Assembly: GCA_963664115.2 (NCBI GenBank) | Contig: CAXWPJ010000002.1 | Location: 256,001-320,000 of the forward strand | From: Terriglobia bacterium | Lineage (GTDB): Bacteria; Acidobacteriota; Terriglobia; 20CM-2-55-15 | Length of the DNA: 64,000 nt | Direction of reading: 5' to 3' | Part shown: positions 3,334 through 61,928 of the stretch, piece after piece | How the letters are laid out: each line of letters starts with the position of its first letter | Numbering within the stretch: the first letter of the stretch is position 1 | Translations under genes and position numbers: made by a program | Notes under the pieces: model-generated | What the model was told of the DNA's origin: nothing | Databases searched by the model: none | What the model saw: only the letters and a program-made list of their open reading frames with translations

Positions 3334-3375
3334 ATCTGGTTTGAAGAACTGAAGGAACGGGTGCCGGTTCCGTGA
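3334..3375 (+). pseudogene. 3'-terminal stub of a Ser/Thr kinase gene ([12 protein letters not shown])
   Basis: tggtttgaagaactgaaggaacgggtgccggttccgtga; the same stub recurs at 11017, 13243, 15672 and 61908. Confidence 0.7.
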
Positions 3376-3490
3376 TTCCGGTCTCAGGGCGCGATAAATC
3401 CCGTTCGCGGCCAGTGAGAGTCCGTTGCCTCCCAGACAAGGTTAAGTTGATGCGTGGACGCTACGTTTCTGGACGTGGCACAATCACCCT

Positions 3491-3859
3491 GTGGCAATTG
3501 AACTGAATCACACAATTGTGCCAGCAAAGGATAAGGTGGCGTCAGCAGAATTCTTTGCTCGGATTTTTGGTCTGCCATACGAGGGAGCCGTAGCGCACTT
3601 CGCTCCTGTTCGAGTCAATGACTCGCTGACGTTCGATTTTGACGACCGTGAGGACTTCGATTCACACCATTACGCGTTTAAGGTGAGTGAGGAAGACTTC
3701 GACGCAGTTTTTGAACGGCTTCAGAATGAGGGAATACCCTACGGGAGTGGGCCACCACCAAACGTGGACAACATGAAGATAAATCGACGGCGTGGTGGTC
3801 GCGGTGTCTACTTTTCTGACCCCAACGGACACGTCCTGGAGCTGCTGACCGTCGGGTAA
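3491..3859 (+). CDS. VOC/glyoxalase family protein
   Basis: LNHTIV, HYAFKV and GRGVYFSDPNGHVLELLT motifs. Confidence 0.9.
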   Translation: MAIELNHTIVPAKDKVASAEFFARIFGLPYEGAVAHFAPVRVNDSLTFDFDDREDFDSHHYAFKVSEEDFDAVFERLQNEGIPYGSGPPPNVDNMKINRRRGGRGVYFSDPNGHVLELLTVG

Positions 3860-4027
3860 GAAGACCGCTCCCCGAGGCGCTGCCCCCAGGCAACCAAACG
3901 GTGCCGAAGAAGTCGGCTTCAAGGAAGTCAGGCCACTGGGGCAGCAAATGTACTTGTCGGCGCCCGAGAGATCCTTGTCGTAAGTTGAGAAACGGACCCA
4001 CTCCTTTCCGAAAAGTCGACTGCCGCC

Positions 4028-4164
4028 CGACGGCCTCCGGCCGCGCGCGGGTTGACATAACACCCATACGACGACATTGCCAGCGCTGCCATTGTCGTCA
4101 GACCCTTCTTATTCCGCTTATCCGCCTTCGGATTCCAGCGTCTTAAGTTTGTCGCCCGTGCGGC
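4028..4164 (+). pseudogene. Degenerate small zinc-ribbon-like ORF (CQRC...*VCRPCG); homologous to 6229-6327
   Basis: About 100 bp homology to 6229-6327 with many third-position differences; second CxxC follows an in-frame TAA. Confidence 0.4.
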
Positions 4165-4228
4165 CCTGAAGTAGCTGGCGACCACCCTTGGACAGTTCCA
4201 TGCGCTCCGGGCTGGAGACTGCCCGGGA

Positions 4229-5671: not shown

Positions 5672-5952
5672 CTGATTGCCTCCAATGTCGTTTCCAATCT
5701 GAGGGAATTCCGACGTAGTGCCTGTGTCGGGAATCGAATTGTAAGAATCCGTATAAATCTAACTTCAGTTGGAACTTCTAAGCAAGAAAAGTCTCAACTC
5801 GCATCCAATTCGGAGCGATTCACTCTAACGTCATACCTGATTGCCAAGGCAGTGAAGCCCTCGCCCCAAGCGATAGAAAAATGAATAGCGGGCCGCCCTC
5901 CGATCGGTTCATGTAGGGGCATCTGCCATATCGAGGTATCGGGGGAGAGGAC

Positions 5953-6220
5953 ATGGACCGCATCAAGCGCGCTGAAACAATGGTATTAGCACTCATCCTG
6001 GTGTGCACTCTGGTGGCCCTTCCGGCCGCCGCCCAGAGTGATTTTGCCGGAGAGTGGCTCGACCATCGGTCACGAAGATATCGAAGTGGATCGCCGCGGT
6101 GGCGCCGTATACGGCGACTACACCGGCCTGCCGATCAACGAGGCGGCCCGCATGCGCCGCGAGACCTACGACGCATCGGTATTCGCGCTGCCCGAATGGC
6201 AGTGCCGTCCGCATGGTGTG
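5953..6220 (+). pseudogene. Frameshifted 5' fragment of a secreted beta-rich protein (probably related to the DUF6152 partner family)
   Basis: Signal peptide AAAQSDFAGEW, then in another frame HEDIEVDRRGG..GDYTGLPINEAAR..LPEWQCRPHG; truncated near 6220. Confidence 0.55.
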
Positions 6221-6228
6221 GATTTCGC

Positions 6229-6327
6229 GCGACGGCCTGCGGCCGCGCAGGGGTTGACATGACGCCCGTACGGCGACACTGTCCGCGCTGCCATAGTCGT
6301 CAGACTCTGCTTGTTCCGCTTATCCGC
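6229..6327 (+). repeat. Second copy of the zinc-ribbon-like segment (MTPVRRHCPRCHSRQTLLVPLIR)
   Basis: Direct homology to about 4028-4126. Confidence 0.7.
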
Positions 6328-6338
6328 TCGAGGCCAGT

Positions 6339-6482
6339 GAAATCGTCCAGGTGACTGCCAGGGACACAGCCGGGGAGAAGACCTTCTCGGTGCGGATGCG
6401 AATCGATACTCCCGTGAAGCTCGAGTACTACCTGCACGGCGGGATCCTGCAGTATGTCCTGCGGCAGATTCTCGCGGCCTGA
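6339..6482 (+). pseudogene. acnA: 3' fragment of aconitate hydratase A
   Basis: RIDTPVKLEYYLHGGILQYVLRQILAA* matches the AcnA C-terminus; the rest of the gene is absent. Confidence 0.8.
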
Positions 6483-6507
6483 TCAACTAGCGGACTGTCA
6501 TAATCCA

Positions 6508-7704: not shown

Positions 7705-8010
7705 GGAGTGTCCGCTTGTCCCTTCAAGGCCTTGCCCAGCTTGAGTCGCAGGCGGTCCTCGATCCAGTGGTCATCCCACCATTCCACCGGGTTTACCGGC
7801 AGACCGTGCAGGAACATCGCGAAGTGCAATGTGTCACCACCGGCAAGATCGGTCTCGCCCTTGCGGCCCAGAGTATCGCCGCGGGCAACTTCCTGCCTCT
7901 CGCTGACGTCCACCGAGGAGAGGTGGCCGTAAAGAGACATCAAACTGTAGCCATGGTTGACCACCGCATTGCCGTAAATGCCGAACGAGCCGGCTCTCAA
8001 GATAATAAGG
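7701..8010 (-). pseudogene. 3' fragment of an M23 family peptidase
   Basis: GIYGNAVVNHGYSLMSLYGHLS...GDTLHF...VNPVEWWD; N-terminus missing; stop overlaps the traB start. Confidence 0.75.
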
Positions 8011-8297
8011 CCGACAGCGTGCACCTCTCAGGTGCATTATCACCCGTTTCTCATGTATCCGTTCTATCGGTGGAAATCCAGAGGAACTCAAACAACAAGT
8101 GCCAGTGTCGGGATTCGGGTCGTCAGGTCCTTACAAATGCGGTTGTAGGGCTTTACCATCTGGCATTAATGGCGGGTGCCCTTAGCAACGAGCAGCGGGA
8201 TTACCTGCCATAAGTCGCCTTGTGTTTAGGAACGCGCTTCCTACGGCTGATTGCCAAGGCCGCTTCAATCGTATATCGGCTATTCGGACAAGTGTCG

Positions 8298-8339
8298 TTC
8301 TCAAGTCCTGAGAAATCATCTTGTCGGACATTGAGAATT
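8298..8339 (+). repeat. Palindromic dispersed repeat, copy R3
   Basis: ttctcaagtcctgagaa-atcatc-ttgtcggacattgagaatt. Confidence 0.95.
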
Positions 8340-8393
8340 CTACAGGGGGTTAAGTGGCCTTCCTCACGAAGCCGTGACCTCAGCCCACCTCCA

Positions 8394-9437
8394 TCATTGA
8401 TCCGTTTGACAATCGTAGATCGGAATCGAATCTCCAAGAGCCAGCCAATAACCCTCGATGGTTGCGGGTTCGGTGAAGGTTTGCGGGTCAGTTACTGTTA
8501 TTTGGAAATCCAGGCGGCTCTGATCGTTGCTCACGGTAAACCGTTCCACGATTTCGACTGCCTCGCTTTGTGGCGTACCGATGGTGTCGAAGAAGGGCCA
8601 GTTGATTCGACTGGTTCTAACGACCAGGGTTCCCTCTTGCCATTCTCCTACCGAGTAACCCAGCCTTGAAGCGGGTTCGTTGGGAGGGGGCTCGGATCGA
8701 TTCAGATGGATCGTCCGCTCAATGTCGTAAAACTCGGTCCTCAGCGTAATCTGATCCCGATGATCGATGAACTCGAAAGGATGCGGATTGGTCATGATTC
8801 TCGGCATGCCTTCCGGTTCGCAACGGATCGCGAAATTGTCGAACATGTCCCATGACTCCCTTGCAGCAATCGCGGATTCCTGAAAGGGCAGGTGGGTAAC
8901 TACTCGACGAGCACGTCCACGTGGAACACTCCAGACGCGAAAAATTCCCTCACCGTCGCCGTTCAGCCCACGTTCAGCCAACAAATCTCGACCGCCAAGT
9001 ATCTCTTCCGACCATCGAGGCTGGGTTGGCCAGAGCAATACCTCACGCCCATCTGTAAACAAAATGTTGGTGGCGAGAAAGTCCAGCTCGTCGCGACTCG
9101 ATCTCCTACCGGCCACCCTCACACGCTCGCCTATTGTGAACAAGTCTTGGGTTATACCTTGGCGCTGCAAGTTATAAATAGAATTTCCATGCATGATCCG
9201 AATCTCTTCCTCACCGTTGGTATTCATCGTTTTTACAGCGATCCTAATGTGTGGGTTTCTCCACTCTAAAGCCACGAGTTCGCCTACCGCTTCAGTGATT
9301 TCGTCGACGTAACCAGCAACGGAATGGTGAGCGGACACGACGACGGGCCAACTAAAGAAGACACCAGCCATCGCAAGGCCACCAAAGAGGAGCCTCCTTC
9401 TAACCCGTTTCCGTCGTGTCGCAATTCGGTCCAGCAT
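8394..9437 (-). CDS. Fusion of a DUF6152-like domain and the beta-rich partner domain
   Basis: Signal peptide then AHHS...WRNPH; C-half has CEPEGMPR, GYSVGEWQEGTLVV, ERF, TDPQTFTEP, YDC. Confidence 0.8.
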   Translation of the reverse strand: MLDRIATRRKRVRRRLLFGGLAMAGVFFSWPVVVSAHHSVAGYVDEITEAVGELVALEWRNPHIRIAVKTMNTNGEEEIRIMHGNSIYNLQRQGITQDLFTIGERVRVAGRRSSRDELDFLATNILFTDGREVLLWPTQPRWSEEILGGRDLLAERGLNGDGEGIFRVWSVPRGRARRVVTHLPFQESAIAARESWDMFDNFAIRCEPEGMPRIMTNPHPFEFIDHRDQITLRTEFYDIERTIHLNRSEPPPNEPASRLGYSVGEWQEGTLVVRTSRINWPFFDTIGTPQSEAVEIVERFTVSNDQSRLDFQITVTDPQTFTEPATIEGYWLALGDSIPIYDCQTDQ

Positions 9438-9578
9438 GTCTTTCCCTCCGATTCCCTTGAGGTAGGTCACATGAAAACGAAGAATGTACTGCATGTCAAT
9501 CTTTGTCTACGTCAACGCTGCATGGGCTCGTGAATCATGCCATCCCAACAGAGTCGGATGGCAGACCTGTCCATCTCC

Positions 9579-9624
9579 GAAATCCATTCTCAAGTCCTGA
9601 CAAATCATCTTGTCGGACGTTGAA
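9579..9624 (+). repeat. Palindromic dispersed repeat, copy R4
   Basis: gaaatccattctcaagtcctgacaa-atcatc-ttgtcggacgttgaa. Confidence 0.95.
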
Positions 9625-9718
9625 CGATTCATTCCCAACCGTTTCGAAGCAAGGACACGCCAATCTGTCAGAAATCGAGATATTCGGAAACTCCGAAACG
9701 AGTAGGTTCCGTTGATGT

Positions 9719-10822: not shown

Positions 10823-10909
10823 CCCTGTGACAGCAATCGTATTTTCACTTTCGCGCGCGACTGGCGTAATTGGGGGGCGGACCTTGTAGGGTAGAGCGGT
10901 GCTGAGCCC

Positions 10910-10963
10910 TGAAATCCATTCTCAAGTCCCGAAAAATCATCTTGTCGGACATTGAGAATTTCA
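10910..10963 (+). repeat. Palindromic dispersed repeat, copy R5 (extended arms)
   Basis: tgaaatccattctcaagtcccgaaaa-atcatc-ttgtcggacattgagaatttca. Confidence 0.95.
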
Positions 10964-11016
10964 CGGTGCTTATTGGCGTTAAGATCGCGCCGCCTGGCCA
11001 AATGCCGTTGGCCTCA

Positions 11017-11052
11017 ATCTGGTTTGAAGAACTGACCGAACGGGTGCCGGTG
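11017..11052 (+). pseudogene. Ser/Thr kinase 3' stub (WFEELTERVPV)
   Basis: tggtttgaagaactgaccgaacgggtgccggtg. Confidence 0.65.
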
Positions 11053-11115
11053 GAATGGGTCTGAGCTATTGGCTCACACTCGAATCGCTTCTCACGCACT
11101 CCCCGCCGAGAACCG

Positions 11116-13086
11116 TTACGGTAGACTGAACGCCACCAACTCGGCGGGATGTTGGCTGTCGCCAATCGCTACGACGATGTATTGCTGGCCCCCGAACATG
11201 TAGCTGACCGGTGGTCCTGTCGTACCCGCAGGGAGTTCCGTTTCCCACCGGGTTTCTCCCGTTGCCTTGTCGTAGGCGCGGAACTTGTTGCCACCACTGT
11301 TCGTTACGATCTCGGCCGGCATTCCCGGTGGAACCCGCGGGTCATTGTCGACGTCGATGTTCGTCAGACCTTCGCCCATGAACAACAGGGTTTTGGTAAG
11401 CAGAGGCGAAGGCCGCCCGGGGTAGCCGAGCGGTCCTAGATTCAGATGTTCAATTGCCGGGTGATCACGGGGGCCGTCTCCATTCGGAACCATCCAAACG
11501 TGCTCGCCTGTATTCATGTCGATGGCCGTGATCCTCCCGTAAGGTGGCTTGAACAGCGGCAGGCCACGCGGTCCCGCGATCCAACGTCGCGTACCCTTCA
11601 CGTACCTTAGGTTCTCTCGTTCAGGATTGCCTGGCCGAAGGTCGGCCACAAACGGCGACGTTATCGAAGGGATATACAGATAGCCAGTGTCAGGATCGAA
11701 CGCCGCACCCTGCACATCACCTCCGCCCTGCGAACCTGGAAGTTGAATCGTTCCCAGCGTGCTATTGGGGCCATCGCCGCGAATCGATGGCGGAGTGAAC
11801 AGGGGGCCAGTGACGTAGCGCCGCACGATCTCAATCGCTTCAGCGCGAAGCTCCGGCGTGAAATCGATCAGATTGTCCTCGATGGAGCCTTGCAGGTCGA
11901 ATGGTGCGGGCATTGTCGGGAACGGTTGTGTCGGAGAAGTCTGCTCGCCCGGTGTCGTCGACTGAGGTACAAGCCGGTCTTCGATGGGCCAGACCGGCTC
12001 GCCGGTCTCGCGGTCAAAAACGAAAGTGAACGCCTGCTTTGTGATTTGCGCGACTGCTTTGATCGGCTGACCATCCACCGTGATGTCCATCAGAATGGGT
12101 GCTGCGGGAAGATCGTAATCCCACAAGCCATGACGGACGGTTTGGAAGTGCCATACTCTTTCCCCGGTCTCTGCGTCCACCGCGACGAGGCTCTGACTGA
12201 ACAGATTGTCGCCAATCCGGTGGCCGCCATACATGTCACTCGTTGCTGACGAGATCGGCATGTAGACGTAACCGAGATCTTCATCGGCGCTGAACAACGC
12301 CCATACGGGTGCATGGCCCGTATAAGACCATGCGTTGTCTTCCCAAGTGTCGGTACCGAACTCTCCAGCTTGAGGAATAGTGTGGTACACCCAGCGTAGC
12401 GCGCCAGTACGTACATCGAAAGCACGCACATCGCCTCTTATGGCCTCTTTCGTCGCGAACGTATCCGACATCGTATGACCCACGACGACCACGTCCCGCA
12501 CAACCAGCGGCGCGCCGCCCCACCGGTAGAATGCACCTGCAGCCAAACCGGTCCTCAGATCGACCCGACCCGAGTCACCGAAATCGGCGTACAGCTCTCC
12601 GGTCTCCGCGTCGAGGGCGTACATATACTGTCCGCGTTGGACGAGGATCCGCCCGTTGGTTCCGTCAGACCAGTACGCCACGCCACGGGTACTCACTCCA
12701 GCGAGCTCCTCGCCAACAGGAGGTTCCTGAACCCAGATTGTCTCGCCCGTTCCTGGATCAAACGCTTCGACGAGACCAATCCCGTTCGGAATGAAAGCGA
12801 CACCATCCACCACGAGCGGGAGGGTGGGGTAGTTGTTCGAGAAGCTAAGCTCTGAATTCTCATCTAGGTAATATTCATCCACGATTGGGCGCTGCCAAGC
12901 GATCTGTAGCCTGTTGACATTGCTGGCGTCGATCTGACTGAGTGGTGTGTACTTAGTGCCGCCGATGTCGCCGCCGAACGTACGCCACTCGCCGTCGGCG
13001 GCACCCATCTGAGCCTGGGCAGACGGAATCAGCAATAACGTACTGATCACGACACCGCACCACAGGGGAAAGAATTTCGTGGTCAT
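11116..13086 (-). CDS. Secreted PQQ-dependent dehydrogenase (glucose/quinate family)
   Basis: Signal peptide; YTPLSQIDASNV, WHFQTVRHGLWDYD, PPYGRITAIDMNTGE and YDKATGE..W motifs. Confidence 0.92.
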   Translation of the reverse strand: MTTKFFPLWCGVVISTLLLIPSAQAQMGAADGEWRTFGGDIGGTKYTPLSQIDASNVNRLQIAWQRPIVDEYYLDENSELSFSNNYPTLPLVVDGVAFIPNGIGLVEAFDPGTGETIWVQEPPVGEELAGVSTRGVAYWSDGTNGRILVQRGQYMYALDAETGELYADFGDSGRVDLRTGLAAGAFYRWGGAPLVVRDVVVVGHTMSDTFATKEAIRGDVRAFDVRTGALRWVYHTIPQAGEFGTDTWEDNAWSYTGHAPVWALFSADEDLGYVYMPISSATSDMYGGHRIGDNLFSQSLVAVDAETGERVWHFQTVRHGLWDYDLPAAPILMDITVDGQPIKAVAQITKQAFTFVFDRETGEPVWPIEDRLVPQSTTPGEQTSPTQPFPTMPAPFDLQGSIEDNLIDFTPELRAEAIEIVRRYVTGPLFTPPSIRGDGPNSTLGTIQLPGSQGGGDVQGAAFDPDTGYLYIPSITSPFVADLRPGNPERENLRYVKGTRRWIAGPRGLPLFKPPYGRITAIDMNTGEHVWMVPNGDGPRDHPAIEHLNLGPLGYPGRPSPLLTKTLLFMGEGLTNIDVDNDPRVPPGMPAEIVTNSGGNKFRAYDKATGETRWETELPAGTTGPPVSYMFGGQQYIVVAIGDSQHPAELVAFSLP

Positions 13087-13242
13087 CTTCAGGACCTCCA
13101 ATGTCAGAAATCGTAAGGCAAAAATGGGCTGACTGAGTCTTTACCGGATGCTAGTTTGGCCTTCCAACCATGTCAAAAGAAAATGTGCTGTGAATCGTCA
13201 ACCATCCAGATCGTCCGATACGATCACGCCCGCCCGACACCG

Positions 13243-13302
13243 CAGATCAACATCGTCTTGAACTGGTTTGAAGAATTGAAGGAACGGGTGCCGGTGCCGT
13301 AA
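13243..13302 (+). pseudogene. Ser/Thr kinase 3' stub ([19 protein letters not shown])
   Basis: Longest tail stub; followed about 30 bp later by a degenerate palindrome. Confidence 0.75.
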
Positions 13303-13330: not shown

Positions 13331-13375
13331 AAAATCCATTCTCAATTCCCGATAAATCTTAGCGGACCTTGAAAA
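13331..13375 (+). repeat. Degenerate palindrome copy R6
   Basis: aaaatccattctcaattcccgataaatcttagcggaccttgaaaa. Confidence 0.75.
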
Positions 13376-13393
13376 ACCTCCGAAATCGCGGCC

Positions 13394-13474
13394 AATTTTC
13401 ACAGTCCGACTGTGTCGTTTAGAGATTTTGATGCCTATAACTCCTTCCTTTTAATATTCTTTATCGTGATTTTC
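13394..13474. repeat. Inverted variant palindrome (R7) plus kinase-upstream motif; homologous to 55243-55312 joined to 58319-58351
   Basis: aattttcacagtccgactgtgtcgttt...ctccttccttttaatattctttatcgtgattttc aligns to aattctcagcgtccgacaatgtcgttt...ctccctcccttagtattctttaccgagattttc. Confidence 0.7.
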
Positions 13475-13659
13475 ATAGAGTAAACTACTGGGTGAAGGGC
13501 GTGGAGTTCAGAGGAGATCTGCAATCTGGCAAATCGTGGTGTCGAATTGATTCTCTTTGTTACAGGCAGCTTTATCGTGATTTTCATAGAGTAAACTACC
13601 GTGGAGTTCAGAGGACGATCTCAATCTGGCAAATCGTGGTGTCGAATTGATTCTCTTTG
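13459..13659 (+). repeat. Imperfect tandem duplication of about 90-100 bp
   Basis: ctttatcgtgattttcatagagtaaactac...gtggagttcagagga...caatctggcaaatcgtggtgtcgaattgattctctttg at 13459-13559 and 13570-13659. Confidence 0.9.
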
Positions 13660-15269: not shown

Positions 15270-15413
15270 TCGCTTTGCGCTGCGCCCCGCAAAGAAATTG
15301 CTGACAATGATCCGCTGGTTTACTACGTTGATGTCGCGACTCCGTTTCACTCACACTTTTTTGGAAAATAAATATAGGAATACCAACTAGTTATAGCCAG
15401 CCTTTAAGGGCTT

Positions 15414-15442
15414 AAAATCCCGTTGGCGGACGTCGAGATTTC
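15414..15442 (+). repeat. Collapsed/degenerate palindrome copy R8
   Basis: aaaatcc..ttggcggacgtcgagatttc resembles the outer left arm plus the right arm. Confidence 0.5.
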
Positions 15443-15514
15443 GTGTACACCTAACCCAAGTGTCTCGTAGACTACCCCCAGCGATCTAAGCCCTGACCTA
15501 ACAAGCCACTGACT

Positions 15515-15713
15515 ATGGAATCCGGCACACAACTCGGCCACTACTAAATCCTCTTCGCCATCGGTAAAGGCGGCATGGGTGAAGTGTGGAAAGCGAAGGA
15601 CACCAAACTCGGGCGTGAAGTTGCCATCAATTCGCTTCCTGAAGAGTTCGCAAAAGATGCGAATCGTCCAGAACTGGTTTGAAGAACTGAAGGAACGAGT
15701 GCGGGTTCCCTAA
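15515..15713 (+). pseudogene. Internally deleted Ser/Thr protein kinase (N-terminus fused to C-terminal tail)
   Basis: [47 protein letters not shown] joined at atcgtc to [16 protein letters not shown]. Confidence 0.85.
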
Positions 15714-15722
15714 TTTTCGAGG

Positions 15723-15760
15723 TCAAGTCCTGACAAATCATCTTCTCGGACGTTGAGAAA
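15723..15760 (+). repeat. Palindromic dispersed repeat, copy R9
   Basis: tcaagtcctgacaa-atcatc-ttctcggacgttgagaaa. Confidence 0.95.
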
Positions 15761-16112: not shown

Positions 16113-16163
16113 GTGAAAATTGTTCTCAAGTTCTGACAAATCATCTAGTCGGAAATTCAGAAT
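16113..16163 (+). repeat. Palindromic dispersed repeat, copy R10
   Basis: gtgaaaattgttctcaagttctgacaa-atcatc-tagtcggaaattcagaat. Confidence 0.9.
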
Positions 16164-40553: not shown

Positions 40554-40805
40554 AGTTGGTCCTCCCAAAATCCCCATCCCGTCGTAGTGCTCCTCGAGTA
40601 TCTTCAGCTGTGTAGATTTTCGAATATTACACCGGCGTGCCCGGCGCGGCGAGTTTTTTCTGACCATCCCGCACCCGGACACAAAGAAAATGGTATTGGC
40701 CGGGGGCAGAGCCCGGTGGATGCTGCCCGTCTCATGTGCAGCTTCTAAGTTCTCTGCAATCCGCTCTACGCCTTACTTCCCTTTGGCCTTCGAGAACTGC
40801 ACTAG

Positions 40806-42654
40806 TCCCAAAACAAGCGCATAACCAGTCCGCCGAGGCCCAGTTCGCGCCGATAGAATTCGAGGCATAGAATCCCGTTCCCGGATGGCCTGTTCCAGGT
40901 ATCGAGTTTCTGTTGAATCTGTTTCAGTTCAGCCTCGCTGGTGTTGGACGGTTGACAGAAACCGGGACCTCGATCGCCCGGGCTCAGAGTCATGATCGGG
41001 TCAACATCGCAGAGGCTGACGCAACACATCCACCCCGCGGAACAAGACCGGCAACCACCGGTTCCAGGCCAGGATCCGGAACAGAATGCGCCGCCCGGTG
41101 CGCACGAGTTGGCACGGCACAAGCATGAAAGCGTTCAAGAAGGTTTTGAACTCCATGCGCAGCACGGTTTGCTTCTCAGCCTGATATTTTTGGCCCCAAC
41201 GTCCGGTTTCGGGAAGCAGCAATGCAAACCACGCTTTCAGTGTCCAGGCCAGTGACGCGATCACCATGTAGGCCCAGTTGCTGGTCTGATCTCCGACCGG
41301 CATCCGCAACGCCTGAACGCCGTTCTTCAACTGCTCAATGAGATTCTCCTGATTGCACCGTTGATTGGCACGCATCACAATCTGGTCGGCCGGATCCGAA
41401 CGGTTGGTAATGTAGAAGAAGTACCGGATGTCGTCAAACAACACCTGCTCTCCTTTGGCCACCGACAGATTCTTCCGCACCACGACGACACGGTAGTCCC
41501 GATCGCAGGCTCCGGGTCGATACCGAAACTCGGCCACATCCTCACCCTGCAAGCGGATATTGTCGAAACCGCGCTGCCGAACGATCTCTTCCTTCACGTT
41601 GTCGGGACGTTGGCGCGGTTCGGTCGCCACGTCGTATTTCGCGGGCCGTTCCAGGCGCTTCCACTGGCGCGGCTCCAGTTCATCGGCCCGGGCCTTCAGG
41701 TTCGCCATCGCGTCAATCCCGAATATGAAACCCACCTGCTGGTCGTCCCATCCGTCCAGATGCCGGGTCTGGCTGAAGTCCGTGTCCCCGCGCAGCAGGA
41801 TCTGGCGAAACCCCGCATGCCGGCACAATGCGATGGCTTGGTCGAACCGGACCGCGGCTCCTTCATGCGACGGCCGGTTGCCGCTACGATTGACCAGATA
41901 CAGCGGTTCGGCGGTGTTGGCCAGCGAGATCATCAGCGGGTGATATCCCCACGTCCCGTCGTAGGCCACGTCCATCCCTTGCTTGCATTCCCCCGTGGTT
42001 TCGGCCAGTGTCCCGTCCGCGTCCAACACCGCTTCTTCGAAAAACGCCGCCGGTTGCTGTCGCCAGACTCCGAGCCGGACTTGATTGGTTGCCTCCATCA
42101 GACACTCCACGTCGTCGGCCTCGAATCTCCGGCAGAAGTCTCCCGCCGTCGTCGGATCCGGAATCCGTTGCGCTCCCAGCGCATCCAGATACACCGCATC
42201 GTTGCGCCGCAGTTCGATGTCTTCCAGGCACGTTCCTCCGCTCAAGGCGTTGTAGGCGATGTTCAGCACGTGATCCGACTCGTGATACGGCAGGTGCCGC
42301 TTCAACACATGCACGCCCTTGTCGATGGCTTCGATCAGCCCGGTCCGCCGCGCCACCAGTTGCATCGTCCCGATACCACCAACCGATGTGCCCCGCGTCC
42401 GCTCTCCCATCTCGTACTGAATGTTGCTCGCCGAAAACATCGGCTCTACCTGATCCGTCCAATGCCGGTCCCCAAGCCGACGTTCGATTCGCCGCTTGCG
42501 GTTCCTCATGTTCTTGCGCGTATAATCGTTCATCTGAAATGCCTCCTTTTCCGAAGAATCTGTTCAAGGTTTTTTTCGCACGGAGAGGGGGCATTTCGGG
42601 TACTTCCGCTCTTATTGCACTATCATTTCCTCGTCAATCACGCTTGTTCAGGGA
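40806..42654 (-). mobile_element. IS1380-family element, copy 1 (1849 bp)
   Basis: Terminal IRs TCCCTGAACAAGCG / TCCCAAAACAAGCG; CTAG on both sides (40802-40805, 42655-42658). Confidence 0.93.
41001..42533 (-). CDS. IS1380-family DDE transposase
   Basis: LDADGT, GYHPL, LRGDTDF and QRCNQENLIEQLK motifs. Confidence 0.93.
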   Translation of the reverse strand: MNDYTRKNMRNRKRRIERRLGDRHWTDQVEPMFSASNIQYEMGERTRGTSVGGIGTMQLVARRTGLIEAIDKGVHVLKRHLPYHESDHVLNIAYNALSGGTCLEDIELRRNDAVYLDALGAQRIPDPTTAGDFCRRFEADDVECLMEATNQVRLGVWRQQPAAFFEEAVLDADGTLAETTGECKQGMDVAYDGTWGYHPLMISLANTAEPLYLVNRSGNRPSHEGAAVRFDQAIALCRHAGFRQILLRGDTDFSQTRHLDGWDDQQVGFIFGIDAMANLKARADELEPRQWKRLERPAKYDVATEPRQRPDNVKEEIVRQRGFDNIRLQGEDVAEFRYRPGACDRDYRVVVVRKNLSVAKGEQVLFDDIRYFFYITNRSDPADQIVMRANQRCNQENLIEQLKNGVQALRMPVGDQTSNWAYMVIASLAWTLKAWFALLLPETGRWGQKYQAEKQTVLRMEFKTFLNAFMLVPCQLVRTGRRILFRILAWNRWLPVLFRGVDVLRQPLRC

Positions 42655-43212
42655 CTAGTGCTAAGACGTCCTGCCACACGAGCCGGCCGATCGGCCCCGT
42701 GCTGTAGACCCCCACCATGATTTTGCCATCGGGGGCCAGGACATATCCTGTGCCGTGGAGGATCTGGCGGCGATCTTCATAGAAGCATCCCGTCAGAGCA
42801 GACACCGCCTTGAAATCCAGGCCGTATCCCATCGGGAAAATTGATGCCGCACTCTTCGATTGTCTTTTGTGTGTTTTCCTCCGAATCCACGGAGGCGGCC
42901 ACAACTTTGATGCCTTCTTCGGCAAGCTTACGCGTCTTCGCGAAAGCGGTCAGTTGCTGACGGCAGTATGGTCACCAGTGCCCGCGATAGAAGAGAACGA
43001 CACCAAAGCTTCCCCCAAGTACATCGGGAAGACTGAGTGTGCCTCCACCGGCGCGCTGGATTTCAAGCTTCGGAAACGCATCGCCCGAATCCAATATCTT
43101 CGTGCCTTCTCTTGGCATTGCTAACACCTCCAAAAACATGCGTCCGGTTTGATTCGTCGCGAGTGTCCTGAATCGGAAGGACAAGAATTTATCCGACTTG
43201 ATCTACGGAATG

Positions 43213-55242: not shown

Positions 55243-55287
55243 AATTCTCAGCGTCCGACAATGTCGTTTCTCAGGACTTGAGAATTT
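55243..55287 (-). repeat. Inverted variant palindrome R14 (spacer ACGACA)
   Basis: Reverse complement reads aattctcaagtcctgagaa-acgaca-ttgtcggacgctgagaatt; followed by a 13 bp duplication gacttgagaattt. Confidence 0.9.
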
Positions 55288-55312
55288 GACTTGAGAATTT
55301 AATAGCACCTAG

Positions 55313-57161
55313 TCCCTGAACAAGCGTGATTGACGAGGAAATGATAGTGCAATAAGAGCGGAAGTACCCGAAATGCCCCGTCTCCGTGCGAAAAAAACCT
55401 TGAACAGATTCTTCGGAAAAGGAGGCATTTCAGATGAACGATTATACGCGCAAGAACATGAGGAACCGCAAGCGGCGAATCGAACGTCGGCTTGGGGACC
55501 GGCATTGGACGGATCAGGTAGAGCCGATGTTTTCGGCGAGCAACATTCAGTACGAGATGGGAGAGCGGACGCGGGGCACATCGGTTGGTGGTATCGGGAC
55601 GATGCAACTGGTGGCGCGGCGGACCGGGCTGATCGAAGCCATCGACAAGGGCGTGCATGTGTTGAAGCGGCACCTGCCGTATCACGAGTCGGATCACGTG
55701 CTGAACATCGCCTACAACGCCTTGAGCGGAGGAACGTGCCTGGAAGACATCGAACTGCGGCGCAACGATGCGGTGTATCTGGATGCGCTGGGAGCGCAAC
55801 GGATTCCGGATCCGACGACGGCGGGAGACTTCTGCCGGAGATTCGAGGCCGACGACGTGGAGTGTCTGATGGAGGCAACCAATCAAGTCCGGCTCGGAGT
55901 CTGGCGACAGCAACCGGCGGCGTTTTTCGAAGAAGCGGTGTTGGACGCGGACGGGACACTGGCCGAAACCACGGGGGAATGCAAGCAAGGGATGGACGTG
56001 GCCTACGACGGGACGTGGGGATATCACCCGCTGATGATCTCGCTGGCCAACACCGCCGAACCGCTGTATCTGGTCAATCGTAGCGGCAACCGGCCGTCGC
56101 ATGAAGGAGCCGCGGTCCGGTTCGACCAAGCCATCGCATTGTGCCGGCATGCGGGGTTTCGCCAGATCCTGCTGCGCGGGGACACGGACTTCAGCCAGAC
56201 CCGGCATCTGGACGGATGGGACGACCAGCAGGTGGGTTTCATATTCGGGATTGACGCGATGGCGAACCTGAAGGCCCGGGCCGATGAACTGGAGCCGCGC
56301 CAGTGGAAGCGCCTGGAACGGCCCGCGAAATACGACGTGGCGACCGAACCGCGCCAACGTCCCGACAACGTGAAGGAAGAGATCGTTCGGCAGCGCGGTT
56401 TCGACAATATCCGCTTGCAGGGTGAGGATGTGGCCGAGTTTCGGTATCGACCCGGAGCCTGCGATCGGGACTACCGTGTCGTCGTGGTGCGGAAGAATCT
56501 GTCGGTGGCCAAAGGAGAGCAGGTGTTGTTTGACGACATCCGGTACTTCTTCTACATTACCAACCGTTCGGATCCGGCCGACCAGATTGTGATGCGTGCC
56601 AATCAACGGTGCAATCAGGAGAATCTCATTGAGCAGTTGAAGAACGGCGTTCAGGCGTTGCGGATGCCGGTCGGAGATCAGACCAGCAACTGGGCCTACA
56701 TGGTGATCGCGTCACTGGCCTGGACACTGAAAGCGTGGTTTGCATTGCTGCTTCCCGAAACCGGACGTTGGGGCCAAAAATATCAGGCTGAGAAGCAAAC
56801 CGTGCTGCGCATGGAGTTCAAAACCTTCTTGAACGCTTTCATGCTTGTGCCGTGCCAACTCGTGCGCACCGGGCGGCGCATTCTGTTCCGGATCCTGGCC
56901 TGGAACCGGTGGTTGCCGGTCTTGTTCCGCGGGGTGGATGTGTTGCGTCAGCCTCTGCGATGTTGACCCGATCATGACTCTGAGCCCGGGCGATCGAGGT
57001 CCCGGTTTCTGTCAACCGTCCAACACCAGCGAGGCTGAACTGAAACAGATTCAACAGAAACTCGATACCTGGAACAGGCCATCCGGGAACGGGATTCTAT
57101 GCCTCGAATTCTATCGGCGCGAACTGGGCCTCGGCGGACTGGTTATGCGCTTGTTTTGGGA
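55313..57161 (+). mobile_element. IS1380-family element, copy 2 (1849 bp)
   Basis: Same IRs and CTAG flanks; transposase identical to copy 1; one visible SNP upstream of the CDS. Confidence 0.93.
55434..56966 (+). CDS. IS1380-family DDE transposase
   Basis: Identical translation to 41001-42533. Confidence 0.93.
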   Translation: MNDYTRKNMRNRKRRIERRLGDRHWTDQVEPMFSASNIQYEMGERTRGTSVGGIGTMQLVARRTGLIEAIDKGVHVLKRHLPYHESDHVLNIAYNALSGGTCLEDIELRRNDAVYLDALGAQRIPDPTTAGDFCRRFEADDVECLMEATNQVRLGVWRQQPAAFFEEAVLDADGTLAETTGECKQGMDVAYDGTWGYHPLMISLANTAEPLYLVNRSGNRPSHEGAAVRFDQAIALCRHAGFRQILLRGDTDFSQTRHLDGWDDQQVGFIFGIDAMANLKARADELEPRQWKRLERPAKYDVATEPRQRPDNVKEEIVRQRGFDNIRLQGEDVAEFRYRPGACDRDYRVVVVRKNLSVAKGEQVLFDDIRYFFYITNRSDPADQIVMRANQRCNQENLIEQLKNGVQALRMPVGDQTSNWAYMVIASLAWTLKAWFALLLPETGRWGQKYQAEKQTVLRMEFKTFLNAFMLVPCQLVRTGRRILFRILAWNRWLPVLFRGVDVLRQPLRC

Positions 57162-57164
57162 CTA

Positions 57165-58315
57165 GTGTACCCCGCTCGAAGTAATGTAACTAAAATAGCT
57201 TTCCAACGTCCAATAGAGAATGAGGAAAGCACCGACCATTGAATTGGATGACAAGCAGCGGATGGAGTTGGAGCGACTGAGTCGAAGCCGGAGTACATCG
57301 GTCCGGTTGGCGGAACGATCCCGAATTGTATTACTGGCCGCTGAAGGTCGGAACAATTATGAGATCGCCGCCCGCTTGGAGATCACGCGCCAGAAAGCGG
57401 GCCGCTGGCGCAATCGTTTTGTGGAACAGGGCTTGGCTGGGATCGAAAAGGATGCGCCGCGAAGCGGACGGATTCCCACGATCAGTCGCCGGAAGCGAGC
57501 CCGGATCGTCAAGAAGACACTGGAAGAGAAGCCCCCGAACGCGACGCACTGGAGTCGGGCCTCGATGGCGAAGGCCGTTGGCGTGAGCGAGTCCACGGTC
57601 GGGAAAATCTGGCGGGTCCATGGACTGAAGCCTCATCTGTCACGAACCTTCAAACTATCCAACGACAAACGATTCGCCGAAAAGCTGGAGGATGTGGTCG
57701 GTCTGTATCTGAGCCCACCGGAAAACGCCATTGTCTTGTCCTGCGATGAGAAGAGCCAGATGCAGGCCCTGGACCGCACGCAACCCGGGTTACCTCTGAA
57801 GAAGGGGCGGTGTGGCACCATGACCCACGATTACAAACGTAACGGGACAACCACGCTTTTCGCCGCGCTCAACATCCTGGACGGTTCGGTCATCGGAACC
57901 TGCATGCCAAAGCATCGCCATCAGGAATGGATCCGGTTTCTGAATCAGATCAAACGCGCCATGCCGAAAGATAAGGAGATCCACATTATTTGCGACAACT
58001 ATGCGACTCACAAACATCAGAAAGTCGTCAACTGGCTCAAGCGTAACAAGCGTTTTCATGTGCACTTCACGCCAACCAGTGCGTCGTGGCTCAACATGGT
58101 CGAGCGCTTTTTCCGGGATCTGTCCGAGCAACGACTCCGGCGTGGCGTTTTCCGCTCGGTCCCCGAGTTGATCCAGGCCGTGGAGGACTACCTCGCTCGT
58201 CACAATGAAGACCCGAAACCCTTCATCTGGACTGCAACGGCTTCCGACATCCTTGCTAAAGTCCAGCGCGGCCGGCGAAATCTTGATAAGTTACAGTCTG
58301 TTTAACGGGGACCAC
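57165..58315 (+). mobile_element. IS630-family element
   Basis: Ends GTGTACCCCG / CGGGGACCAC flanked by TA within CTAG; abuts IS1380 copy 2. Confidence 0.9.
57220..58305 (+). CDS. IS630-family transposase
   Basis: HTH region; DEKSQ, THDYKRNGT, DNYATHK, TSASWLNMVERFF. Confidence 0.95.
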   Translation: MRKAPTIELDDKQRMELERLSRSRSTSVRLAERSRIVLLAAEGRNNYEIAARLEITRQKAGRWRNRFVEQGLAGIEKDAPRSGRIPTISRRKRARIVKKTLEEKPPNATHWSRASMAKAVGVSESTVGKIWRVHGLKPHLSRTFKLSNDKRFAEKLEDVVGLYLSPPENAIVLSCDEKSQMQALDRTQPGLPLKKGRCGTMTHDYKRNGTTTLFAALNILDGSVIGTCMPKHRHQEWIRFLNQIKRAMPKDKEIHIICDNYATHKHQKVVNWLKRNKRFHVHFTPTSASWLNMVERFFRDLSEQRLRRGVFRSVPELIQAVEDYLARHNEDPKPFIWTATASDILAKVQRGRRNLDKLQSV

Positions 58316-58379
58316 TAGCTCCCTCCCTTAGTATTCTTTACCGAGATTTTCGTTGTTCTTTCGGCGACACACTTTAATC

Positions 58380-58640
58380 ATGGAATCGGGCACTCAGCTA
58401 GGTCAGTACGAGATTCTGAGCCTTCTCGGTCAGGTTGGGGAATGGGTGAGGTGTGGCGTCCAAGGGACGCCAAGCCGGGACGCGAAGTGGCCATTAAGAC
58501 TTTGCCTGAGGAGATTGCCAAGGATGCGGATCGTCTCGCACGAATTGAACGTGAAGCGAAGCTTCTGGCTTCGCTCAATCATTCAAACATCGCTGTGATC
58601 CACGGGTTTGAAGAAGACAACGGGATGCACTTCCTTAGTC
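58380..58640 (+). pseudogene. 5' fragment of a Ser/Thr protein kinase (frameshifted)
   Basis: [17 protein letters not shown](fs)[45 protein letters not shown]; stops before the catalytic loop. Confidence 0.85.
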
Positions 58641-58772
58641 TTGGAACCAACGCGGCAGACTTTCCAGCGAGCAGGCCATCCCTCGTTTGGCGGGCGAAGA
58701 ATCCTTTGACCTCTCAGTCGTTGACCTGCTTTAAGTTGACAGCAAAGTGTCGGGACGGCTTAAATCGTTAGC

Positions 58773-61241
58773 ATGTCTGACTCGATTCCAACTTCTCTTT
58801 CATCTATCCTGGGCGCTGCCCGTTCGGCCATGCCGTCGCTGCCGGTGCTTTTCGTTCTCATGCTCCTGCCGGCGCTCTCTTTGGCTCAGGAGGGCACCGC
58901 AGTTCTGTCCGGCCGCATTTTGGACGACTCCGACGGTTCGGCGGTCGGCTTCGCGACCGTGCTGATCAAGAACACCACGGGAGAGCCTCTCTCTGGTGTC
59001 CTTGCTGGAGAGGACGGCCGCTTCCTGATCGAGGGTTTGGCGCCGGGCAACTACACCATCGCGATGTCGTTTCCCGGGTTTTTCCCTGAGGAGGCCAACG
59101 TACTTGTCTCCGAACTCAACCAGTCTTACGACCTGGGTGATATCGGCCTCGTTCGTCAGGTGGTCGAGCAGGAGATTACGGTCACGGCAGAGGCGATCCG
59201 GGTGGCCGGTATAAACACCGAGCTGTTCCGGCTCGACGAAGGGCCGACCCAGTCGACCGGATCGCTGCTCGATGCGATGCGGAATCTTCCTGGTGTGACG
59301 ATCGATCAAGAAGGCAGAGTGGCGCTTCGTGGTAGCGATCAGGTCTCCATCCTTATTGACGGCAGGCAGTCGAGCCTGACGGGATTTGGAAGTCAACGCG
59401 GCCTCGACAGCGTTTCCGCGGCCAATATAGAAGCGATCGAGATCATCCACAATCCTTCTGCGAGCTTTGACGCCGCCGGAATGGCCGGAATCATCAACAT
59501 CATCTACAAACAGGAAACGGAACTGGGCCTCTCGGGAGATCTTGGCCTGTCCGTCGGCGTCGGCCAGTTCTCCAAGCAGCAGCCCGATCTGCCGACTGAT
59601 CTCGGCAGCTTTTCGAACAACGGGAAGATCACGCCCAGCCTAAGCCTGAACTACAACACCGAGAGCGTCCGCAGCTTCGTCCAGACCGAAGTCCTCGTGC
59701 AGGACGATCTGCCAAACAACGAGTTCACGACCCGCTTCTACGACGACGGTCGCGTCATCCAGTCACAGGTGCCGGAAAACCGCGAGCAGACGCACTACAT
59801 CGTCCGGGCAGGCTCGGACATCAGCGTCGGTAGTTCCAACACGCTTTCGGTTTCAGGGATCTACGACTTCGAAACACATACCGACCGTGCGCAGGTTCCC
59901 TTCATCCTGGCGTCCACCGGTGAACGCGAGCGATTTTGGTTCTGGCAGGAAGAGGAAGATACAGGTTTCGCCAACATCAACTTCGATCTCAAGCACGAAT
60001 TCCCGACGCCCGGGCATGAGCTGAACGTCAATCTCCAATACACGCGTGGATGGGAGGACGAGGCGTACTTTCTCAACGAGGAATCAAGGGTTCGCGTGGG
60101 CACGGACATGACCCATCTTGTCGCCGAAGAGAACACTCTGCCACTGAGCATCGATTACATACGCCCGCTGTCGAGCGGTCGGTTGGAGTTGGGCACGAAG
60201 CTCCAAGCGCGCTGGCTGCCAATCACCTACACAGTCGACCGTGGCGTGCAGAGCGTGATTTATGAAGGACTCGGCGACTCTTCCGACTGGGACGAGGACA
60301 TTTACGCCGCGTACGCCAACCTGGTCCAGGTGAAGAACTCGTACTCATTTGAGGCCGGAGTCCGCATCGAGCAGACCAACGTCGCCTACACGATCCCGGA
60401 CGAGAACATCTACTACGAGGGCAGCGACGCGTACAACTACTTCGAGGTCTTTCCAAACGTCAAGTTCACCTACCGGCTGGGCGACGCGAATCAGCTGATC
60501 GCCGCGTACAACCGGCGCATCGATCGACCGGGAGAACCGGAACTGCGCATCTTTCCAAAGTACGACGATCCGGAACTGCTCAAAGTGGGCAACCCGTTTC
60601 TCCGGCCCCAGTTGACCAACGTGTTTGAGGTCGGCTTCGGACGATCGTGGGACGGCGGTTCCGTCAACACTGCCATCTACCACAGGGATCTCGCAGACGC
60701 GTTCCAGCGCGTTTTCGCCATCGACGATACCAACCCGGACTACGACATCGTAAACAGGATCTTCGAGAACGCCGGAAACTCCACCCAGACCGGAATCGAG
60801 GTGATCGTGGAACAGCAGATCGCCGCCCCATGGCGTCTGTCCGGAAGCGTCAACTGGTTCACGAACGACATCGAAGCCCTGGAAACCACCTTGCTGTTCC
60901 CGACACCGCGGCCGTTCACTCTGGCCGCTTCGAGAGACGACACCTGGGATTTCACCATCAACAACCAGTTCCGACTGCCCCGCACGGGGGAACTCCAATT
61001 GAGCTACATCTATTACGCTCGGAGGAACGTCCCCCAAGGCCGCGAGCGTGCACGCTCGTCGCTCGATCTGGCCGCCACCTGGCCCATAGTGAACGAACGC
61101 TCCGAACTGGTGTTCACCTTCAGCGATATCTTCAACGATTTTGCTGTGGAACGTGAGATCGACGGTCAAGGCTTCACGGCGATCTACCAGAACTTGTTGG
61201 AATCGCAAGTTGTCAGCGTTGGCGTAAGAACCCGGTTCTGA
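58773..61241 (+). CDS. TonB-dependent receptor with N-terminal carboxypeptidase-regulatory-like domain (start may be 58830)
   Basis: Signal peptide; plug motifs LPGV, IEAIEIIHNPSA..GIINI; GNPFLRPQ; terminal Phe. Confidence 0.9.
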   Translation: MSDSIPTSLSSILGAARSAMPSLPVLFVLMLLPALSLAQEGTAVLSGRILDDSDGSAVGFATVLIKNTTGEPLSGVLAGEDGRFLIEGLAPGNYTIAMSFPGFFPEEANVLVSELNQSYDLGDIGLVRQVVEQEITVTAEAIRVAGINTELFRLDEGPTQSTGSLLDAMRNLPGVTIDQEGRVALRGSDQVSILIDGRQSSLTGFGSQRGLDSVSAANIEAIEIIHNPSASFDAAGMAGIINIIYKQETELGLSGDLGLSVGVGQFSKQQPDLPTDLGSFSNNGKITPSLSLNYNTESVRSFVQTEVLVQDDLPNNEFTTRFYDDGRVIQSQVPENREQTHYIVRAGSDISVGSSNTLSVSGIYDFETHTDRAQVPFILASTGERERFWFWQEEEDTGFANINFDLKHEFPTPGHELNVNLQYTRGWEDEAYFLNEESRVRVGTDMTHLVAEENTLPLSIDYIRPLSSGRLELGTKLQARWLPITYTVDRGVQSVIYEGLGDSSDWDEDIYAAYANLVQVKNSYSFEAGVRIEQTNVAYTIPDENIYYEGSDAYNYFEVFPNVKFTYRLGDANQLIAAYNRRIDRPGEPELRIFPKYDDPELLKVGNPFLRPQLTNVFEVGFGRSWDGGSVNTAIYHRDLADAFQRVFAIDDTNPDYDIVNRIFENAGNSTQTGIEVIVEQQIAAPWRLSGSVNWFTNDIEALETTLLFPTPRPFTLAASRDDTWDFTINNQFRLPRTGELQLSYIYYARRNVPQGRERARSSLDLAATWPIVNERSELVFTFSDIFNDFAVEREIDGQGFTAIYQNLLESQVVSVGVRTRF

Positions 61242-61260
61242 GGATCCAATATGCTTGTCC

Positions 61261-61298
61261 TTCTCAAGTCCTGACAAATCATCTTCTCGGACGTTGAA
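61261..61298 (+). repeat. Palindromic dispersed repeat, copy R15
   Basis: ttctcaagtcctgacaa-atcatc-ttctcggacgttgaa. Confidence 0.95.
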
Positions 61299-61529
61299 CT
61301 TCGGGGAGAAGTGCCTAGGAACTGAAATAACGCCGGATTACTAACGATAAGTCGCCAAGGGTTTACCTATCCTGCGGAAGTGAATAGCTCTACCATTCGG
61401 CGTTGCCGAGGACGAATCGTCGCGGCCGCAGGCCGTCGCGCGACCTCTTGCTTTCATGTTTCTTTATCGAGATTTTCAAAGCCAGATTGAAAGAGTCGGT
61501 TCAGTGCCGTCCTATGAGATAGTGGCGTC

Positions 61530-61928
61530 ATGTACTGGCCGCCAACTCGGACGTTTCTGAAATACATCGTCATTCAGATTCCGGGCTGGCTCGGGCTGGT
61601 AGGCGTGCTGCTTTTGCTGTGGCGTCGAGTGGAAATGCCCGCCTGGGCCGCCGGCACGCTGCTCGGTTGCTGGGTTGTGAAAGACCTTGCTCTCTATCCG
61701 TTCCTCCGACGGTCATACGAAGAAGATCCACGGACGGGAGTTGAGCGTATGGTGGGCCTCCGTGGAGTCGTCACCACCGACCTCACGCCAAAGGGTTACG
61801 TCCGCGTGCGCGGCGAGCTGTGGCGTGCGACGGCCCCAACAGGGCCCGTGCCCAGAGGAAGCACGGTGGAAGTCGTCAGTGCTGCTGGTCGTCTTACTTT
61901 GGCGGTTGAACGGGTGCCGGTGCCCTAA
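61530..61928 (+). CDS. NfeD-like membrane protein; last codons match the kinase tail
   Basis: TM helices then GxVxVRGELWRA OB-fold motif; ends ERVPVP*. Confidence 0.85.
   Translation: MYWPPTRTFLKYIVIQIPGWLGLVGVLLLLWRRVEMPAWAAGTLLGCWVVKDLALYPFLRRSYEEDPRTGVERMVGLRGVVTTDLTPKGYVRVRGELWRATAPTGPVPRGSTVEVVSAAGRLTLAVERVPVP

Follow-up and report, generated by a model that had tools for sequence, protein, structure and literature searches.

Introduction

The closest described counterparts of the system discussed here are the dif modules (pdif/xrs) of Acinetobacter. In the accessible parts of the reports on them, C and D modules alternate, sites with identical or near-identical 6-bp spacers recombine and same-orientation modules occur in fused form (PMC13141974); cointegration, not excision, dominates (PMC11705084); and 22 chromosomal dif-module sites are reported for one strain (PMC12907356). 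Here, we describe a window of 64,000 nucleotides from a Terriglobia bacterium (C2:256001-320000 of the host genome, labelled G000), in which stubs of a Ser/Thr kinase gene lie next to a 42-bp palindromic site. We propose that the stubs are the ends of cassettes bounded by this site, with XerC of the host (together with XerD) as the most likely recombinase. We give this reading a probability of roughly 45%, and put the cassette architecture itself, whether served by XerC or by a dedicated recombinase, at about two-thirds.

Like the Acinetobacter modules, the Terriglobia arrays include genes flanked by inverted sites whose asymmetric 6-bp spacers fall into classes. In both systems the modules form arrays that are shuffled, that hold no recombinase gene and that attract insertion sequences (IS) to their sites, and same-orientation modules occur fused. 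The Terriglobia system differs by its ~190 chromosomal sites as against 22, its conserved 14-bp arms, one dominant spacer, mostly direct repeats, module ends that are remnants of a kinase family, and its different phylum. The XerC arm is matched here, whereas a canonical XerD arm and a crossover confined to the spacer are not. The system works like dif modules and fails on these two points, and we regard it as a variant of the dif-module systems for which we infer the enzyme.

The attP site of TLC phage and the gonococcal island site difGGI combine a conserved XerC arm with a divergent XerD arm, according to the accessible part of the source (PMC5357621). The present site resembles such sites of integrative mobile elements exploiting Xer (IMEX) in its XerC-like arm with a divergent partner, and it forms inverted doublets, spaced by 15-17 or 106 nt, that are reminiscent of the pair of CTX attP sites, likewise inverted. 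By contrast, IMEX share their central region with the chromosomal dif and integrate there, whereas the dominant spacer here, read in the dif sense (GATGAT), matches that of the host dif at one of six positions, and no XafT-type activator (DUF3653) was found in the five genomes searched.

Integron attC sites have the core RYYYAAC...GTTRRRY. The arrays described here share with integron cassette arrays their polarised, site-separated cassettes, the potential to form bulged hairpins, the targeting by IS and the movement between arrays. They differ from them in lacking a RYYYAAC/GTTRRRY pair, in their 42-bp site and in multi-gene cargo in both orientations; moreover, no site lies within 3.5 kb of the integron integrase gene (C9:714590), a search of the related genome G003 did not recover this integrase, and cassette ends displayed no excess of complementarity in sets of 84 and 43 cassettes. 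We ruled out an integron mechanism on the site logo, these cassette ends and the position of the integrase away from the arrays. The integrase and the short open reading frames (ORFs) upstream of it (C9:711000-715873) resemble a small classical cassette array, apart from the kinase arrays.

Non-autonomous transposons of the Ds and Pack-MULE type keep their ends at variable length, with an interior that is deleted or replaced by captured genes. Here, too, both ends are retained at variable length and the interior is lost or replaced; the parent, however, is a kinase gene rather than a transposase gene, and no cognate transposase was identified. To our knowledge, it is still an open question by what route genes first enter integron cassettes and dif modules, partly in that finished cassettes are not known to retain a trace of their origin. 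Where the founder is a protein-coding gene, its remnants record the steps of cassette birth, and the route becomes testable. If the proposal holds, dif-module-like shuffling would extend from Acinetobacter to acidobacterial chromosomes, with ~10x the reported number of sites and a partner arm that is not canonical. Mobile modules would then account for part of the large kinase/propeller expansions in these genomes. A literature search, with most subscription journals outside its reach, found no published description of acidobacterial kinase stubs or of such site arrays.

Kinase stubs and sites are linked and share a polarity

A profile scan of the genome gave 191 sites above 16 bits (181 after removal of assembly duplicates). 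The site is a quasi-palindrome of 42 bases, reported as 14+6+14 bp, with the consensus TCAAGTCCTGANAA, a 6-bp spacer and TTSTCGGACNTTGA. Its arms are near-symmetric (10-11 of 14 positions), and AA and TT flank the spacer in 169 and 168 of 178 sites, respectively. The spacer is asymmetric and fixed: the 158 A-type sites mostly carry ATCATC and the 33 B-type sites mostly ACGACA or ACGACC (ATCATC in 142 of the 191 and ACGACA/ACGACC in 22).

On the plus strand of the window, a six-frame search and a repeat search recovered five kinase tails and two kinase starts, the same seven stubs that a sequence-only reading had noticed. Its statement that no intact kinase is present was confirmed as well: the catalytic HRD/DFG motif is absent, and a Pfam scan for domains gives one partial kinase match, at 58442. 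That reading had also placed four tails near the palindrome, and four tails do have a site behind them. The tail at 3334-3375 (Trp codon 3337, with stop codon; six-frame search) is directly followed, after ~5 nt, by a degenerate site with spacer ATCCCG (3380-3421); the tail at 13243-13302 (Trp codon 13264), by a site with a 3-nt spacer deletion after 35 nt (13338-13376); the tail with Trp codon 15675, by an A-type site after 5 nt (15719-15760); and a six-codon tail remnant at 61908-61928, by an A-type site after 15 nt (61944-63236) that is split at its spacer by an IS30 element (transposase 62011-63207). The exception is a diverged tail at 11017-11064 (Trp codon 11020), which reads WFEELTERVPVEWV before its stop codon; a site precedes it by 61 nt and none follows. 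The palindromes had been described as sharing the plus polarity of the stubs, which is borne out for all of them except one inverted site, at 55244-55285, that had gone unmentioned.

The same linkage is found genome-wide. We counted 148 tails and 54 start matches (52 once overlaps are merged), assembly duplicates included. Sites, tails and starts each gave zero matches in reversed or shuffled sequence, and a chance origin of stubs and sites is excluded. The enrichment of tails at palindromes seen in the window holds throughout: of the 148 tails, 77 (0.18 expected) are followed by an A site on the same strand no more than 60 nt away, at a distance of exactly 5 nt in 52 cases, and none is followed over this distance by an A site in the opposite orientation. 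Adding partial, IS-split and variant sites raises the tails with a site behind to 113 of 148, with a partial-site pattern that matches 2% of 20,000 random windows. A scored same-strand A or inverted B site lies within 260 nt upstream of 31 of the 52 starts, and many of the other 21 show site remnants by eye. The left-hand site of a unit often belongs to the second, inverted class with its different spacer: 15 of the 33 B sites are followed by a kinase start at 74-89 nt, and 14 have an A site 15-17 or 106 nt before them, with which they form the inverted doublets. The site is positioned just upstream of the predicted -35 region, 73-75 or ~100 nt before the kinase ATG. Tails lie on the same strand as their nearest A site in 135 of 138 cases (opposite in 3), and neighbouring A sites have the same orientation in 104 of 109 pairs (opposite in 5); the arrays are polarised. 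By eye, array orientation follows no consistent pattern with GC skew, and we rejected a tie between the two.

Intact kinases, hollowed units and cargo

Against the 148 tails and 52 starts stand four distinct intact kinases with this start and tail, of 877-902 residues. All four are predicted Hanks-type Ser/Thr kinases (Gly loop, VAIK, HRD and DFG) joined to a PD40/TolB-like propeller, which agrees with the earlier attribution of start and tail to Hanks-type kinase/beta-propeller genes, and the closest homologues come mostly from Terriglobia or Acidobacteriota. The copy at C10:248476 has a full A site on either side; at C5:8574 the left site is a full A and the right one is shortened; C12:20624 lies between an IS-split B remnant and a full A site; and C9:945169 has a half site on its right and lacks a scored one on its left. 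Their DNA is ~76% identical at the start and 81-92% at the tail, with little similarity between.

Near the sites, kinase coverage (computed with a profile of 84 full-length homologues) is U-shaped, with 38-41 fragments at the start, 10-14 in the body and 67 at the tail. The median remnant measures ~27 residues for tails, 86 of the 148 being detected by the profile, and ~46 for starts. When we followed the 51 distinct starts, 29 ran into cargo, which was followed by a tail in 20 cases and by a site in 9, and 3 were plain deletions to the tail; 8 rows cover a full-length kinase (one of these rows just extends across the next gene), and for 11 neither a tail nor a site lies within 9 kb. The 29 starts that enter unrelated genes and the 3 plain deletions support the earlier claim that kinase bodies were repeatedly deleted or replaced, with the caveat that cargo followed by a tail is by itself no proof of a single replacement event, since many sites carry tails. 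Differences among tails concentrate at third codon positions (0.18 versus 0.057 and 0.042); therefore, the tails stem from many formerly coding paralogues. The same bias led us to reject the tail as a DNA-level attachment site. There is one clear parent-stub pair, in which a stretch of 126 nt at the tail C9:927338 matches the intact C12 kinase with 92% identity.

Both starts of the window are stubs. A complete miniature unit spans 15399-15760 and comprises a degenerate site (15399-15440, plus strand, spacer ATCCCG; seen by eye, under the scan threshold), 74 nt of promoter region, 51 codons of kinase start fused to the tail via the 6-nt microhomology ATCGTC (15515-15713, ATG at 15515, stop at codon 11), and the full site mentioned above. 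The second start (58380-58771, plus strand) is frameshifted, reaches ~residue 98 and ends 1 nt before a TonB-dependent receptor gene (58773-61241). Its left-hand site is the inverted B-type site at 55244-55285 (minus strand, spacer ACGACA), and an IS1380 and an IS630 element occupy the promoter between site and start (55309-58320, plus strand, right end approximate).

A-to-A intervals below 8 kb number 93, with a median of 2,386 bp, and contain 151 non-IS genes by our own gene caller, 94 of them oriented with and 57 against the array polarity. Each cassette carries 1-5 ordinary genes in either orientation, among them enzymes, transporters, DUF6152 pairs, and S1-domain and sigma-70-like paralogues (genome-wide names mostly by eye); DUF6152 genes and a related secreted-protein family are the commonest cargo near sites. 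A reverse-transcription origin of the cassettes was rejected on these orientations and on the often multi-gene cargo; the genome holds five reverse transcriptase matches. No in-frame fusion of tail and cargo passed a genome-wide filter, although the NfeD-like ORF at 61530-61928 takes its in-frame stop codon from the six-codon remnant and is a fusion of this type, the remnant being shorter.

Site-bounded segments recur in different arrays

Self-comparison of the genome revealed several segments that start and end at sites and recur in different arrays at 91-99% identity. The cassette at 8297-9623 of the window (plus strand; left-end A-type site 8297-8338), which holds a DUF6152-containing ORF on the minus strand (8394-9494), has a copy at C6:43763-45089 (99.3%). 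C6:39777-40199 recurs at C10:252476-252898 (95.5%), and window 63212-63952, a GNAT cassette with an A-type site at its right end (63910-63951), at C12:516495-517235 (91%). A 701-bp segment with its left end at the A-type site 61260-61301 is duplicated at C12:161223-161923 (99.3%). In addition, C6 and C11 hold different cassettes upstream of one common site, as after a swap of cassettes at one slot. Arrays are also shuffled between genomes, and the segments common to the host and its relative G002 usually begin at a site and end away from one. Duplication of the whole site upon insertion was rejected, neighbouring sites being no more similar than random ones in the host genome (82 pairs).

Site arrays and kinases in related genomes

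Among 61 genomes, tails occur in 32 and the A/B pattern in 8, with 143 matches in the host, 88, 54 and 8 in three of its four congeners, and 1-5 sites in four genomes of genus g4. Twenty G002 loci picked for site density contain 95 sites, 63 tails, 24 starts and 3 full-length kinases, and at locus L212 of G003 two full-length kinases stand in tandem, each between sites. The unit of site, promoter, kinase and site, which the sequence-only reading had taken for the ancestral repeat, is intact in the host and in two sister genomes. In genus g4, many kinases are intact. These often form tandems in which the stop codon of one gene overlaps the start codon of the next and in which intervening sites are absent. 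Because relatives hold such site-free, translationally coupled tandem kinases, the site-kinase-site unit stands as one ancestral form, not the sole one. Taken together, the relatives display every stage from intact tandem kinases to stubs.

Where g4 kinases are separated by spacers, these contain related sites with the spacer sequences GTCGCC and ACCGCC, in inverted doublets ~27 nt apart; this variant pattern occurs in 20 of the 61 genomes. All 11 genomes with at least 10 tails have a site of some class, as do 3 of the 29 without tails, in a comparison of related and hence not independent genomes. In family f11 (G049 and G057, with 3 tails each), related sites of two spacer classes surround non-kinase cargo and switch orientation from one neighbour to the next in 31 of 35 pairs; conserved sequence also persists just inside the sites. 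This recalls the alternation of dif modules, whereas A sites in the host are mostly direct and 14 of the 33 B sites sit in inverted doublets with A. Because the f11 sites bracket non-kinase cargo, the site system is wider than the kinases, the kinase being the founder module in the host's family; the sites, rather than the kinase, look primary.

Two observations on these genomes stand apart. An ORF of G057 (L240:4191-4817) appears, by eye, to fuse ~13 kinase N-terminal residues in frame to a sigma-70 fragment, and full sigma-70-like paralogues are cargo in the host (C2:330491) and in family f11. Kinases 69-72% identical to the family, along with additional starts and tails in their vicinity, occur at three loci in Deltaproteobacteria records (L110, L113 and L116), where we found no A/B sites.

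Candidate recombinases and rival explanations

Dif sites have been predicted for three acidobacteria, according to the accessible part of the report (PMC3025954). The chromosomal dif of the host is a separate single site (C2:108118-108148, spacer TGAGTA). We scored the arms of the 42-bp site against a profile of 13 acidobacterial dif sites, found with a pattern that fixes the XerD arm. Read on the other strand, the right arm of the A/B sites reaches a median of 7.2 bits over 8 free positions of the XerC-arm profile, a score equal to that of held-out dif arms; the fraction of random 14-mers that attain it is 0.00065. This is a sequence match only, from several arm/profile pairs that were tried. 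The host has 27 tyrosine recombinase matches, with XerC at C9:863207 and XerD at C2:150455, and these two are the only intact PF00589 recombinases common to the site-rich genomes G000, G002 and G003, in a comparison that retrieved 30 of 39 matches, including all 12 of G003. We infer that a tyrosine recombinase acts at the sites; co-occurrence and arm match would make XerC with XerD the enzyme, and we favour XerC-based recombination, at under even odds.

A number of observations weigh against this proposal. The left arm is not a canonical XerD arm, having 5-6 of 11 matches and a score reached by 20% of random sequence. In the g4 variant sites the XerC-arm score is reached by 11-16% of random sequence, which is not significant, and the bases beside the spacer vary. 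No XafT-type activator was found in the five genomes searched, as noted above, and 129-158 single-spacer sites in both orientations around the chromosome would be dangerous if freely active. Stubs occur also in relatives where few sites were found. The crossover map is not confined to the spacer: in pairs with a common right flank (n=14), variable positions of the right arm differ at 14 of 42 against a background of ~47%, and in pairs with a common left flank (n=9), left-arm positions differ at 5 of 18 against ~39%, the pairs not being independent of one another. Repeated exchange or conversion could mask a central crossover. No excised circles or inversions were seen in the assembled contigs of eight sequencing runs, where joints came mainly from other repeat copies and gaps in four runs prove nothing. 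Finally, the genome is a metagenome assembly, and some duplicates may be strain haplotypes.

Several of these points would fit a dedicated recombinase that binds both arms, and that is either not detectable as a PF00589 protein, lost here, or supplied in trans by a phage or plasmid. The near-symmetry of the arms, the lack of a canonical XerD arm and the departure of the g4 and f11 variants from XerC all speak for it. The known candidates, however, fail to follow the sites: the integrase at C5:52189 occurs in 11 of the 61 genomes and was not found in G002 or G003, which led us to reject it, the integron and IS91-linked integrases were not found in G003, and a custom profile detected no hidden tyrosine recombinase in G000. 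Loss of the enzyme is at odds with the recent 99% duplicates, which imply that it is still active. We consider such an enzyme rather unlikely. A phage-type integrase family linking five genomes was likewise rejected, the host having just a 95-residue fragment and most members no adjacent sites. The gene at C5:52189 itself encodes a tyrosine recombinase and is enclosed by two B sites that are inverted to each other, beyond which kinase starts on either side point away from it (C5:52058-53271). The genome also has three serine resolvase matches.

The spread of crossovers across the whole site and the converted look of the arms could also mean that no site-specific enzyme is involved, and that RecA-type recombination and gene conversion, for instance in the course of natural transformation, act over short blocks of tail, site, promoter and start homology and exchange the DNA between them, with the site serving as an operator of the kinase promoter. 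Its position just upstream of the predicted -35 region, and intact kinases that are alike at start and tail with little in between, are what this explanation would lead one to expect. Several swaps, by contrast, have only the 42-bp site in common and unrelated flanks. An operator would not require its 6-bp spacer to be asymmetric and fixed, with two classes specific to orientation, and would have no need of sites that alternate on both sides of non-kinase cargo; we judge this explanation unlikely.

The sites fold into hairpins with a bulge (-7 to -11 kcal/mol, z -1.6 to -2.9), A and B sites form inverted doublets, IS91-family elements lie beside sites and two RAYT-like genes lie near one of them; the sites might accordingly be hairpins like repetitive extragenic palindromes (REP), cut on single strands by RAYT or another HUH transposase that also makes variable deletions. 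This is very improbable: symmetric variable positions of the stem lack covariation (positions 15/26, p=0.37), the loop sequence is fixed, and the one RAYT-like protein tested scores below the family cut-off (56 versus 80 bits). Passive decay, in which random deletions and insertions erode tandem kinase arrays with a promoter palindrome and no unit is mobile, would suit an IS-filled genome and the stages seen in relatives and is hardly credible, as it leaves the site-to-site duplicates, the C6/C11 slot swap and the kinase-poor f11 arrays unexplained.

A proposed route of cassette birth

In the XerC-based scheme, the 42-bp sites are likely site-specific recombination sites, which XerC with XerD of the host would recombine. 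New cassettes would be born by deletion or replacement inside a site-flanked kinase gene, and capture would proceed via illegitimate, microhomology-type joins within an existing module; one such join is visible at 15515-15713. Insertions such as the ~102-nt repeat described below, present at several breakpoints, may aid capture. The stubs would persist in that they adjoin the sites and, at the left, carry the promoter. Tentatively, some Terriglobia could have their own chromosomal cassette system, with arrays that lack an integrase gene, hundreds of Xer-like sites that shuffle modules, and new modules born by hollowing existing ones. If so, and with the same reserve, the founder module of the present lineage would be the kinase gene, and the DNA would show all stages side by side: the intact kinase, its emptied shell, a shell whose cargo stands under the kinase promoter and, after further wear, the bare sites.

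Insertion elements, repeats and further features of the window

IS1202-type elements insert at Xer sites, as stated in the accessible part of a preprint (10.1101/2022.12.17.520857). The present genome is rich in IS, and IS30, two IS110-type, IS91-family and other elements insert in or beside its sites. The IS30 and the two IS110-type elements lie repeatedly at or next to the 6-bp spacer (window 61944-63236, C5:47851, C11:1115 and others). Eight two-gene elements combine a tyrosine recombinase with an IS91-family transposase (C1:92926, C1:107675, C2:196451, C12:35350, C12:158198, C12:486987, C12:569262 and C3:2939). All eight examined lie inside a site, full or degenerate, or at most ~270 nt away from one; six of them are identical, and joining takes place at a GTT core. 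Two identical copies of IS1380 occur in inverted relative orientation in the window, at 40800-42658 and 55309-57167, the latter stacked with the IS630 of the kinase promoter at a CTAG.

Another dispersed repeat, of ~102 nt, lies on the minus strand at 4011-4125 and 6216-6327 of the window and has 36 copies in the genome. It has a precise left end, two hairpins and a dif-like site with a near-canonical XerD arm. Within 6 kb of sites or stubs, a zone that makes up 24% of the genome, we find 31 of the 36 copies; the repeat stands at the breakpoint of five kinase starts and is joined to four tails. This repeat is possibly an element that resembles an IMEX attP or one that is mobilised by HUH enzymes, and it may contribute to the hollowing.

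The remaining A-type sites of the window are all on the plus strand. Between those at 684-725 (spacer ATCATC) and 2745-2786 lies, as apparent cargo, a minus-strand gene for an S1-domain protein of the ribosomal protein S1 type (969-2510). Further sites lie at 9586-9627 and 10918-10959, and a diverged one at 16122-16163. A pyrroloquinoline quinone (PQQ) dehydrogenase gene on the minus strand (11116-13101) is the cargo that precedes the tail at 13264. Rfam gave zero matches within the window. Just past the degenerate site at 13338, a 111-nt tandem duplication occupies 13459-13659, and from 13763 to 40682 many DUF6152 genes are paired with the related secreted-protein family in both orientations.

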